This document shows positions 6,001 through 9,000 of a stretch of 42,855 bases of DNA, in pieces. Position numbers: made by a program. This DNA comes from a virus: UHGV virus genome UHGV-2000170. One strand, 5' to 3'. Numbering within the stretch: the first letter of the stretch is position 1; each line of letters begins with the position of its first letter.

Positions 6001-9000
6001 TCGGCGTTTCGGTGGTGTCTTCTTCGGAAATTTTCCCACGGTTAGTCGGGCGAACATATGAGAGTTTGTGTTTGATTTTCACACGGTTCTCATCAAATGG
6101 TTCGATTTCCAGGTTGAGTGAGACCTTACCTTTGGTTTTCGTGTTCATCACACCGGAAGCGACTTCACTGAGAACTGCGCCGATTTTGGTTTCAAATACG
6201 CCGCCGTCCAGCTCCCCGATAAATGCCTGCACATCAGTACTGCGTTCACTAGCCATTTTGCTGCTCCTCATCATATCGACCCTGCAAGGTCGGTTAGTTT
6301 CTCCACAAAACAGAGAAGAACACCTGCGGTGGCAGCCGCCCGGATGGATTGGGTTATGAGCCCGTCGTCCGATGATGTTCTTCTCTGTTTTGTAAAAAGA
6401 GCGGTACCAGCCGGAAGCAAGTGTACAAACTGGTACCGCCAAAGCAGTGGCTGTTGTGGTGACCGGTGCTGATCTCCGGCTTGCGGTTATTTCAGACTCT
6501 CACGGGCATTTAATTGCCCCGCCGAACAGCTCTTTTCCGCAATATCTGCAATGTCTTTCGCGCATCAGCCTGCGCATTCACCACAACGCTGAGAGCACTT
6601 AGCCAGTTACGGCACCACACTTTGTCGCGGTTCCATAAATGCCCTCATCGTTGCACCCTGGTCTCTTCCCAGGCGTCAAACCGAATCGCCACGCTGGTTA
6701 GGCGTCTTATCAGCATCATCATTGACTTGCACATTCCGGCTACCTGGTTTGTTTGCCCGAGCAAGGAGTGGATTGTCCCCTTTAACGTCCCCAGACCGCT
6801 AACGACGCATGTGCCATACGCCGTGTTACAACCAAATTTTGTTAGTACCTTGTTTGTTTGTCTGGAAAGAAAGATAAAATGAAGTTGCGCATTATGCAAG
6901 TGTTTTTGTTGCGAGATATGCAATTTGATGAGTAATGAAAAGCCACCTTCGGGTGGCTAATTGATGAGGAGGTAAGGGTTAATTGTGTCGCTTAAGGGTT
7001 TGTGACTGGCTGATTAAGACCTTTCCAAAGACCATAAACCGGTGTTCATTTTCGCTGGTAATTCCCCATTCACGGTAAATCTGGTTATCAGAAATCACCA
7101 GTAGTTTGTCAGGTATCATTTGCAGTCGTTTGACATAAATTTTATCATCAAAAACAAATACATAGATACCATCTCCATCAAACTGATTGATACTGACATC
7201 AACGAAGATGAGATCTCCTGGCTCAATGGTTGGACACATACTGTCCCCACGAACGTTGATAACTTTAATGTGATTGGCTGGCCGTCCGCCAAACATCGAT
7301 ACAGCATTATCAGTTCTGTATTCAATGGCATGAATCACATCAATGACATCACCGCCCTGGATAAGGCCATTTCCCGCACTGGCACTGACATCCAGCATTT
7401 CAATACGGAATACATCCTTCACCTGCGCAACATCCTCACTAATACTGTTTTTACATACAGTATTACTTTTGAAGTCTGAGGTAAAGAGATCAGCAATATC
7501 AACACCTAAGCTCCTGGCAATATTACTCAGGGCTTGTTCAGTGAATTGTTTCTGCTTACCTGTTTCCAGGCGTGAGATATTCGCCGCATCCACTCCTATT
7601 GCTTCAGCGAGATCGGCTATTTTCATGTTCTTCGCCTGGCGAAGTTGTCTGACTCGGTTTCCTATGTTCATGCGTTTATTACATTTCTTTATTGCGCGTT
7701 AAGCAAATCAACTTGCGCAAAATATTTGCGTGAAATAATATGCTCATCACGCAATATGTGGAGGTCATATGCAATCACCATTACGTAATGTGCGTAAGGC
7801 GCACGGATTTACTTTGCAGCATGTTGCTGCTGGCGTTCAGGTCAATCCAGCGACGCTGAGTCGTATTGAAAGACTGGAACAAATTCCATCTATCGATCTT
7901 GCAGAACGTCTGGCCAATTTTTTTAAGGGTGAAATCAGCGAAATGCAGATTCTTTATCCGGCACGTTTTCAATCTAGCCAAAACCAGAATGGGTTTAAAC
8001 CACAGGAACAGGAGGTAAGCCGTGGGTAATCATCACTGGAAAGTGGAAAAACAGCCTGAGTGGTACGTGAAAGCTGTCAGAAAAACTATCGCGGCGTTGC
8101 CGGGGGGTTACGCTGAAGCTGCTGAGTGGCTGGATGTTACAGAGAACGCTTTATTCAACCGCCTTCGTGCAGATGGCGATCAGATTTTCCCGCTGGGATG
8201 GGCAATGATTTTACAGCGTGCTGCTGGCACTCACTACATTGCGGATGCTGTCGCACAGTCTGCTGGTGGGGTGTTTGTATCGCTTCCTGAAATTGAGGAA
8301 GTAGAGAACGCAGATATAAACCAGCGCCTGCTGGAAGTCATCGAACAGATCGGGAGTTACTCAAAGCAGATTCGTTCGGCAATCGAAGATGGGGTAGTGG
8401 AGCCACACGAGCAGACAGCAATTAATGATGAATTGTATCTGTCAATTTCGAAGCTCCAGGAGCATGCGGCACTGGTCTACAAAATTTTCTGCGCTCCAGA
8501 AAAGAGTGACGCCCGCGAGTGTGCAGCTCCGGGCGTCGTGGCGTTTTGTGTCTGTGGAGAAACTAACGCATGAACAGTTTAACGGCAAATAACCGTTTGT
8601 CGCAACAGCTGGTGGTCAGTGTCGCTGCACACCTGTTGTTACGGCATGAATGCAGATTACCAAATCACCTGGCTGTAAGTAACCACAGAGAACTTTACCT
8701 GACTGTGGGGGGCGAGTTGTGCAGGAACTTAACCGCTGGTTTCGTGACGGAAGAGGACTTTATGTTCATGTTATTCGTTGGGAGCCAGAAACACAGCGCG
8801 TTATCTATCTTCGCAAAGACTACCCGCATGAATGCTTTAGTCCTTTGTGGAAATTCAGGCGTGATTTTGTTGAGTGTGAAGGACCACCAGCACATTGATT
8901 CTGCCATTCCGGGACGTTACACTGTTCAGGCACCTTATAAAGCGGGTGCCGGGCGTGGAAACCCGGAATTCACCAAAGCGCACAACCGCGCTCTTGCGGT

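Follow-up and report, generated by a model that had tools for sequence, protein, structure and literature searches.

The N-leader and sib of phage lambda are hairpins for ribonuclease III (RNase III), operators of the thrS type are mimics of transfer RNA (tRNA), and the species 1 and 2 RNAs of phage T4 are small stable RNAs of phage tRNA clusters. The tRNA shape is also found in engineered tRNA scaffolds and in natural tRNA mimics, namely the YrlA Y RNAs and mascRNA. In phage HK022, the put element is about 70 nucleotides (nt) long, consists of two stem-loops, and is present after both the early leftward promoter PL and the early rightward promoter PR (PMC9378689). Here, we analyzed the leader between PL and the early-left genes (positions 6257 to 6978) of virus genome UHGV-2000170, a stretch of 42,855 nt that is referred to below as the window.

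The leader is a chain of conserved RNA modules whose helices covary, namely, module C, a junction stem (J), module B, a terminator hairpin (T), and element A, and one of them, B, occupies tRNA slots. Since the leftward genes are on the minus strand, all RNA features are given in the minus sense, the only one in which the G.U pairs of B, C, and A were supported. The first-pass annotation had described a hairpin-rich leader with an 18-base-pair (bp) stem and a 10-bp stem. This structure is real and conserved, but the two hairpins are not the main content of the leader, and modules C and B (about 400 nt upstream) had been overlooked.

A mosaic of conserved RNA modules

The fold of the entire leader was more stable than that of every shuffled sequence (z, -4.5). 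A sensitive blastn search split the leader into blocks common to unrelated phages. The block from 6581 to 6824 matched Uetakevirus phages, where it abuts a tRNA-Arg gene; that from 6660 to 6837 matched P1, SJ46, and D6 and, in P1, fills the transcribed strand of the trnI-ban gap, a stretch without annotation; and that from 6452 to 6600 was 95% identical to a virulent Klebsiella phage and to P1 relatives. A 42-nt core matched T1-like, N4-like, Vi01-like, and P22-like phages, in gene-poor stretches with tiny open reading frames (ORFs) at most. Some part of the leader was present in 2,944 of the 5,426 complete Escherichia coli genomes searched, where the Prokaryotic Genome Annotation Pipeline left the full leader unannotated and, in some strains, called the part with hairpin A alone a hypothetical protein or YmfH. 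Some genome matches come from metagenome-assembled genomes of uncertain binning. Rfam 15 gave nothing at the gathering score within 6257 to 6978 and chance-level matches alone at E values of up to 10, and a literature search by sequence strings did not find a description of the modules. Copies in the window were sought with mismatch-tolerant patterns and nhmmer, as the variable insert of B defeats a covariance model of its frame only. C, B, and A each occurred once, all on the PL side and none past PR.

Module C (approximately 6837 to 6649) was delimited by conservation and covariation and starts about 25 to 45 nt past the likely transcription start. It comprises hairpin C-P1 (6823 to 6803), helix C-P2 (6798 to 6791, paired with 6747 to 6744 and 6740 to 6737), hairpin C-P4 (6705 to 6691) with the 7-nt loop CUAACCA, and hairpin C-P5 (6673 to 6657) with the loop GAAGAGA. 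Across 14 diverse copies, 96.7% of the alignment cells in the four helices were paired, versus 31 to 40% in slid controls, and 12 pairs had compensatory changes. The sampled sequences are interrelated, so that shuffle controls overstate significance and the slid controls are the fairer comparison. The linker sequences of C were invariant, and invariant G.U pairs were found in the minus sense only. The module, whose single copy in the window was confirmed by nhmmer (E, 1e-39), is also present in SJ46, D6, Uetakevirus phages, and others and, in the trnI-ban gap, in P1, where it begins right after the CCA of trnI. RNAalifold gave an alternative long-range pairing of the C-P1 loop with AAUGUGCAAG, which, as modeled, may be a pseudoknot.

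Between C and B lies junction stem J (6585 to 6652), in which AACGAUGAGGGCAUUU at the 3' end of C (6652 to 6637) pairs with UAAGUGCUCUCAGCGUU in the leader of B (6601 to 6585) and encloses a small hairpin (minimum free energy [MFE], -28.0 kcal/mol; z, -3.3). For the equivalent strands GGUAAGAGCAUU and AGUGCUCUUUCC, covariation was seen in other phages; AUGAGGAUU, for instance, is matched by AGUCCUCAG, and AAUGACACU is matched by AGUGUCAUU. Therefore, junction helices appear to divide one cassette from the next. Past C, the content of the slot varies among relatives: it is filled by B, by a second element type with the same closing stem, by a real tRNA-Arg, or by T-arm-like pieces followed by B, and a further B-like variant occupies it in SfV and in the K-12 prophage e14. 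Equivalent junctions were seen at approximately 50 loci, and in most relatives the boxA core UGCUCUUU is part of the 3' strand of the stem, AGUGCUCUUUCC; the window reads UGCUCUCA at this place (6601 to 6587). The reading of this motif as a boxA was weakened, since the strand covaries with its pairing partner and thus behaves as a helix strand, and no boxB hairpin was recognized in the leader. The same strand may have a dual role in Nus-factor loading on untranslated arrays.

The MFE fold of module B (6454 to 6586) was a four-arm cloverleaf. The acceptor-like stem (6584 to 6578 with 6462 to 6456) has 7 bp, can be extended to 9 bp, and is followed by an AU connector. The D-like arm, GCGC-AGGCUGAU-GCGC, has a 4-bp stem (6575 to 6560), and the place of the anticodon arm is taken by a 78-nt insert (6558 to 6481). 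The T-like arm, GCCGG-AGAUCAGCA-CCGGU, has a 5-bp stem (6480 to 6462) and adjoins the 3' acceptor strand, after which an unpaired A occupies the discriminator position (6455) with no CCA. With this 7-bp acceptor stem, 2-nt connector, 4-bp D stem, and 5-bp T stem, B is, according to its predicted fold, a tRNA-like structural mimic. The loops of its D-like and T-like arms are complementary by Watson-Crick pairing (GCUGAU with AUCAGC) and appear to stand in for the usual elbow contacts. At 6453 to 6462 and 6578 to 6587 lies a third perfect inverted repeat, of 10 bp, that was unreported in the first-pass annotation.

The two conserved ends of B pair with each other, and its two frame motifs occur once each in the window, with 0 occurrences expected by chance. 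In 84 distinct frames, 94.6% of the cells were paired, versus 27 to 54% in slid controls; 11 pairs had compensatory changes, and G.U wobbles were frequent in the minus sense only. The inserts, in contrast to the frame, are hypervariable, ranging from 26 to more than 150 nt with mutually unrelated sequences. The 22-mer GTGAATGCRCAGGCTGATGYGC of B was found in at least 120 IMG/VR contigs and in 117 stretches of a one-genome-per-species collection covering Gamma-, Beta-, and Alphaproteobacteria; the stretches came from Enterobacterales, Pseudomonas, Halomonas, and Xanthomonadales, as well as from many Betaproteobacteria and a few Alphaproteobacteria. An identical 5' leader, AAGUGCUCUCAGCGUU, is followed from the same nucleotide by a real tRNA-Arg in O157 typing phage 9, and this leader precedes a tRNA-Arg at the same position in Uetakevirus phages. 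A tRNA gene was located within 1 kb of 18 of 113 B copies, always on the same strand and in some cases just 6 to 20 nt away. In the neighborhoods of the 206 nonredundant B loci, no dedicated protein partner was found, the commonest neighbors being ordinary lambdoid genes, and neither rsr nor rtcB was found near B loci.

Several other identities of B were examined and discarded. It is not a genuine tRNA according to ARAGORN and Rfam, and its anticodon arm is replaced by the 78-nt insert. Nor is it a transfer-messenger RNA (tmRNA): the window copy has G3-C70 instead of the alanine-type G3.U70, no CCA, and no tag frame, and ARAGORN called no tmRNA in the window or in the fetched loci. A frameshifted gene for a TraR/DksA-type zinc finger, the first guess for the conserved 42-mer, was dropped because the two ends pair and covary. 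The hammerhead, enterobacterial repetitive intergenic consensus or miniature inverted-repeat transposable element, and integron attC readings do not match in their core motifs, and the G.U pairs indicate an RNA of one sense.

At individual loci, sequences resembling other RNAs lie in or near B. The insert of one copy (L108, 4600 to 4646) matched positions 237 to 283 of 16S ribosomal RNA (rRNA) (E, 2e-5), and that of another (L099, 3978 to 4026) matched the D/T elbow of a tRNA without the anticodon arm (E, 0.002). Therefore, the B scaffold can carry copies of host RNAs. In five T1-like or N4-like phage contigs (L007, L009, L034, L048, and L083), a conserved module about 150 to 300 nt upstream of B contains a tmRNA-tag-like frame; the frames read ANEEMYLAVA*, ANDDVILMAA*, and ANDDLMLMAA* and belong to neighboring modules of these other phages only. 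Weak matches to the Rfam tmRNA_permuted family (E, 0.03 to 0.3) were obtained at the four loci scanned, L007, L009, L034, and L048, and ARAGORN calls no tmRNA. An abiF RNA motif (RF03085; 55 bits, above the gathering score) lies 4 nt past the B copy of L129 (1269 to 1305). In phage P1 (L006), a B copy (approximately 3778 to 3877) is antisense within the annotated plp ORF, and the C copy (approximately 2501 to 2685) fills the trnI-ban gap; the two copies share the strand that is transcribed from Pban, and no RNA is annotated at either.

Hairpin T, element A, and coding potential

The 10-bp perfect stem (6401 to 6410 with 6430 to 6439, with a 19-nt loop) was recovered by direct inspection and by an inverted-repeat search, and the 18-bp perfect stem (6305 to 6322 with 6376 to 6393) was confirmed to lie inside a pair of 25-nt arms with 88% complementarity. 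According to the results of folding and covariance analyses across relatives, both stems keep their pairing through compensatory changes in distant prophages and are therefore not due to chance. The shorter one belongs to hairpin T (6394 to 6441), in which the stem (6439 to 6430 with 6410 to 6401) is followed by the U-tract UCUUUUU (6400 to 6394). As minus-strand RNA, the hairpin extends to 13 bp (-21.2 kcal/mol; z, -4.9). Its stem is kept with compensatory or wobble changes, around a variable loop of 18 to 19 nt, in e14 and at loci L344, L274, and L196. Among the roles suggested earlier for the hairpins, that of a terminator fits this one, which is terminator-like in having both a hairpin and a U-tract; as modeled, it is an intrinsic terminator directly after B. 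With a loop of more than 8 nt, it escaped the terminator scan. A processing role of the structures, also suggested, is plausible. The order of B-like cassette, T, and A was also seen in SfV and e14.

Element A (6300 to 6398), defined by folding and covariation, is a three-way-junction RNA. Helix A-P1 has about 25 bp, including the 18-bp stem, and GUGGAGA, at the foot of the element, can pair with the U-tract of T. The two other helices are A-P2 (6370 to 6342) and A-P3 (GCGG-CUGCCA-CCGC, 6339 to 6326). The long hairpin folded to -47.9 kcal/mol (z, -7.25), and none of 200 shuffles was equally stable. In 12 diverse copies, 92.7% of the cells were paired, 10 pairs had compensatory changes, and a U.G pair was invariant in the minus sense. 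Insertions or deletions in A-P3 across the copies were 2, 16, 21, 22, and 25 nt long; most are not multiples of three, which speaks against a coding function of the A region. Element A precedes yfdP-like genes in prophages of E. coli, Shigella, Salmonella, and Klebsiella and precedes xisE in e14, where it is annotated within ymfH. In the e14 prophage of the K-12-type strain CV601 (L361, 1363 to 1674), the ymfH ORF is wholly covered by the B-like cassette, T, and A, just upstream of xisE, and ymfH is probably not protein coding.

The tip of A-P2, CGGGCUCAUAACCC (6364 to 6351), reproduces without mismatch 14 nt from the anticodon stem-loop of the tRNA-Met that E. coli has in four copies, the initiator tRNA with its three G-C pairs. 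The match covers three G-C pairs and the loop CUCAUAA. The tRNA-Met sequence was verified in 5,426 E. coli genomes, where it was found with 100% identity, was annotated as tRNA-Met, and had a median of 4 copies. CUCAU was kept in 11 of the 12 copies of A. The base helix of A, at about 25 bp, also has the length of an RNase III site (approximately 20 bp or more of near-perfect double-stranded RNA) and is a candidate for cleavage.

These data bear on the idea of an ordinary, attenuator-containing untranslated leader in which the common blocks are recombination scars and decayed, functionless tRNA genes. Lambdoid genomes are mosaic, B sits in the slot of a real tRNA in relatives, and neither ARAGORN nor Rfam calls it a tRNA, all of which would fit. 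Decay, however, does not yield compensatory changes in four separate structures, and it leaves unexplained an exact 22-mer in 117 stretches from three proteobacterial classes while the insert varies. We therefore regard this explanation as quite improbable.

The leader was equally examined for proteins. As the first-pass annotation had stated, it has no credible or N-like ORF: no Pfam family scored above the cutoff, and no PHROG N family and no N-like or Arg-rich match was found, so that no counterpart of lambda N, an Arg-rich protein encoded after PL, was detected in it. These searches, together with the nontriplet insertions and deletions in A, ruled out an N-like or other leader protein. 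Downstream, the alignment of the YfdP family (phrog_204) starts at residue 57 of a 182-amino-acid (aa) open frame, six residues before the start codon chosen previously, and only the first 56 residues of the upstream extension of this frame are outside the family alignment. A 25-aa ORF on the minus strand in the insert of B (6500 to 6577; MRRLMRERHCRYCGKELFGGAIKCP) gave a subthreshold zinc-ribbon match (16.3 bits, with a cutoff of 27) and is probably fortuitous. That small proteins are nevertheless encoded, as a YmfH-like frame through A, the plus-strand ORFs annotated in mEp460, or the 25-aa CxxC peptide, would agree with open frames matching PHROGs (phrog_33599 on the minus strand, E of 5e-14, and phrog_3651 on the plus strand, E of 1e-25) and with hypothetical proteins annotated here in GenBank records. 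However, no Pfam family was matched, most of the insertions and deletions in A would shift a reading frame, the stems show RNA covariation, and annotators differ on the strand. PHROG matches on both strands of one hairpin reflect nucleotide-level conservation of a palindrome, and we consider coding to be highly improbable.

Genomic context and comparison with put

The window is a lambdoid prophage of the mEp460/SfV/cdtI/Stx2c-phage group. Its leader is 98 to 99% identical to those of phages PhiR63_1 and mEp460 and 100% identical to that of E. coli strain 4/1-1. It is flanked by a cI-like repressor gene (6979 to 7671, minus strand), beyond which lies cro (7769 to 8029), and by the first leftward genes, which are yfdP-like (start at 6256), yfdQ-like, and yfdR-like. 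The terminator scan placed a hairpin of the cI-like gene at 6941 to 6958 on the minus strand (AGCCACCCGAAGGUGGCU, then UUUUCAUUACU), 21 nt past the stop codon. The left-operator-like (OL-like) sites TTGCGCATTATGCAA and TTGCGAGATATGCAA, with the probable PL, were read directly from the sequence at 6884 to 6923; the operator-like repeats TTGCG-N5-WGCAA were placed by eye at 6884 to 6898 and 6909 to 6923, and their half-sites recur beside cro at 7700 to 7760. On the minus strand, the candidate -35 and -10 elements of PL, at 6899 to 6894 and 6876 to 6871, would place the start near 6863, and CATAAT, at 6897 to 6892, could serve as the -10 element instead. From the sequence, transcription would start somewhere between 6860 and 6885, an approximate position. 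At the other end of the leader (6254 to 6292), a small hairpin (6292 to 6277) precedes the Shine-Dalgarno sequence GAGGAG (6268 to 6263) and the ATG of the yfdP-like gene (6256 to 6254).

Two observations were made elsewhere in the window. At 8930 to 9118, isrK (67 bits) and C4 antisense RNA (84 bits) lie back to back inside a mechanically called 383-aa ORF (8570 to 9721). The 5' half of this ORF is therefore probably noncoding, and the region looks like an antirepressor control module of the P1 immI or Gifsy-1 isrK type. At the far end (41279 to 41477), a full-length match to the IS009 RNA family (192 bits) was found.

The put RNA suppresses termination in cis by way of the zinc-binding domain of the beta-prime subunit of RNA polymerase. 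To compare the leader with put, which the first-pass annotation had proposed as a model for the hairpins, a profile hidden Markov model (HMM) and a covariance model were built from six putL and putR sequences (HK022, HK639, phiEt88, and CobraSix), and the models recovered their own sources. With nhmmer, the best match of the profile in the window had an E value of 4.3 and lay outside the leader. With the covariance model (R1) and filters off, the best match in the window had 8.2 bits (E, 0.61) at 13827 to 13919, and nothing was found within 6257 to 6978. Paired copies past both early promoters, as in put, were absent: C, B, and A are single, with nothing equivalent past PR. The proposal of a put-like element did not survive these results, and both models ruled out an element of the HK022 type. 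The leader resembles HK022 put in being a structured, cis-encoded RNA just past an early promoter, upstream of terminators, in a lambdoid phage without N. Unlike put, its modules are 130 to 190 nt long, single copy, tRNA-like, and also present outside lambdoid phages, and they match put in neither sequence nor structure.

C or B, or both, might still be a cis-acting processive antiterminator, similar to put in function and unrelated in sequence, that modifies RNA polymerase and lets it pass T and the later early-left terminators. Such a role would suit a phage group without N, cII, and cIII, as reported for the relatives SfII, SfV, and SfIV (PMC3851460), and it would suit the strong terminator directly after B. 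At 42 of the 206 nonredundant B loci, a cI-like gene is located just upstream on the same strand, in a PL-proximal arrangement, and the 22-nt frame does not vary between proteobacterial classes, which would be expected of an RNA docking on a universally conserved machine. The finding that put remains active once it has been cleaved out of its transcript (PMC9378689) is compatible with this role too. However, neither the HMM nor the covariance model showed similarity to put, and there is one copy of each module, with nothing past PR. Moreover, virulent T1-like, N4-like, and Vi01-like phages carry B within their tRNA clusters, as does P1 within its ban operon, and the lambdoid logic does not apply in these settings; the hypervariable insert of B has no obvious role in antitermination, and no finding points to antitermination specifically. 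Thus, we consider antitermination unlikely; if it did occur, the modules would be a second RNA solution to the problem solved by put.

Known small RNAs (sRNAs) of related regions were considered as well. The modules share with the prophage sRNAs C0293 and svsR an origin in the immunity region, which for these sRNAs is that of e14 or of SfV-like prophages; the two sRNAs are reported to affect the host (PMC12803456). In contrast to the modules, the C0293-like svsR of an SfV-like prophage reportedly maps to the 3' end of cI (PMC12803456), a site equivalent to 6941 to 6985 in the window, upstream of PL and outside C, B, T, and A. The Pas sRNAs, which belong to the late region, are unrelated, and the K-12 sRNA ECS009 has a different sequence.

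Proposed processing and related systems

We think it reasonably probable that the leader is a noncoding RNA cassette between PL and the early-left genes, not an mRNA leader, and that it gives rise to a precursor processed into stable RNAs. Transcription from PL, or read-through from cI, would first produce C, the junction stem, and B, after which the polymerase would meet the intrinsic terminator T. Since T follows B, the main product would probably be a precursor of about 450 to 490 nt. By analogy, the host tRNA-processing machinery would cut this precursor, with RNase P acting at the 5' side of B (6585/6584) and other nucleases acting at the junction stem, and the stable RNAs released would act in trans on conserved host components. 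Only polymerases reading through T would transcribe A, then yfdP and the early-left genes. Element A would be a portable structure of the 5' untranslated region, with a helix of RNase III length and a mimic of the initiator-tRNA anticodon arm, and would most likely set the processing, stability, or translation of the yfdP-like operon. The promoter position, the termination efficiency, the processing sites, the stability of the products, and all downstream functions are what we infer here.

Several points weigh against processing into stable RNAs. B has no encoded CCA and no canonical T-loop, and neither ARAGORN (0 genes in the window) nor the Rfam tRNA model RF00005 (E of up to 10) calls it; for these reasons, its processing by RNase P is only an analogy. 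The z-score of its fold is modest (-2.7), and the kissing pair between the D-loop and T-loop is backed by one-sided changes from G-C to G.U only, in a sample in which the retrieval pattern had fixed the D-arm and D-loop, so that D-arm variation was undersampled. Processing and the stable RNA species are read from sequence comparison and predicted folds. The promoter consensus scan called no promoter at PL, and the candidate is weak by consensus. Finally, if T is efficient, expression of the early-left genes would require an unexplained read-through mechanism.

Beyond the window, and tentatively, the modules may belong to an undescribed modular RNA system in phages across Proteobacteria. In such a system, cassettes with a common closing stem (UUGUGG...CCACAA) and covarying junction stems would provide a tRNA-shaped scaffold displaying variable pieces, some of which copy host translation RNAs, and the products would be early-made decoys or sponges for host factors or for tRNA-targeting defense nucleases. 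The displayed copies would be 16S rRNA positions 237 to 283, the tRNA elbow, the tmRNA-like tag frames of neighboring modules, and the initiator-tRNA anticodon arm of A. At the sequence level, the host RNA copies in the inserts and the tag-like frames suggest a decoy or display function. The frame of B is near-invariant from Alpha- to Gammaproteobacteria while its payload is free, which points to a universal host machine. If the modules are indeed early decoys or scaffolds, they would add an RNA layer to phage takeover or counterdefense. B defines a large RNA family absent from Rfam 15 and widespread in phages, and sequence found in over half of the complete E. coli genomes searched, previously unannotated or called a hypothetical protein (such as K-12 ymfH), can now be read as conserved structured RNAs.

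Similar to the lambda N-leader, sib, and thrS operators, element A combines a long helix (about 25 bp), situated immediately before the first early-left gene, with a tip that copies a tRNA anticodon arm. Unlike these, A is a three-way junction and a portable block found before different genes (yfdP-like genes or, in e14, xisE), and its cleavage and protein binding would be hypothetical. Module B shares with phage tRNA genes and the stable RNAs of their clusters the geometry of tRNA arms, the 5' leader of a real tRNA-Arg, and same-strand sites in tRNA clusters, whereas, in contrast to tRNA genes, it lacks an anticodon arm, canonical D- and T-loops, and a CCA end, and it carries a hypervariable insert. 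Similar to engineered scaffolds, YrlA, and mascRNA, B is a tRNA-shaped frame that bears a foreign RNA in the place of the anticodon arm, and such a frame could confer nuclease resistance and processing by tRNA enzymes. It differs from YrlA in having no match to the Rfam YrlA model at E values of up to 10 and no rsr or rtcB nearby. Judged by these comparisons, the modules fall outside put, tRNA, tmRNA, and all families of Rfam 15 and would be closest to tRNA-like or tRNA-scaffolded stable RNAs combined with a structured element of the 5' untranslated region.

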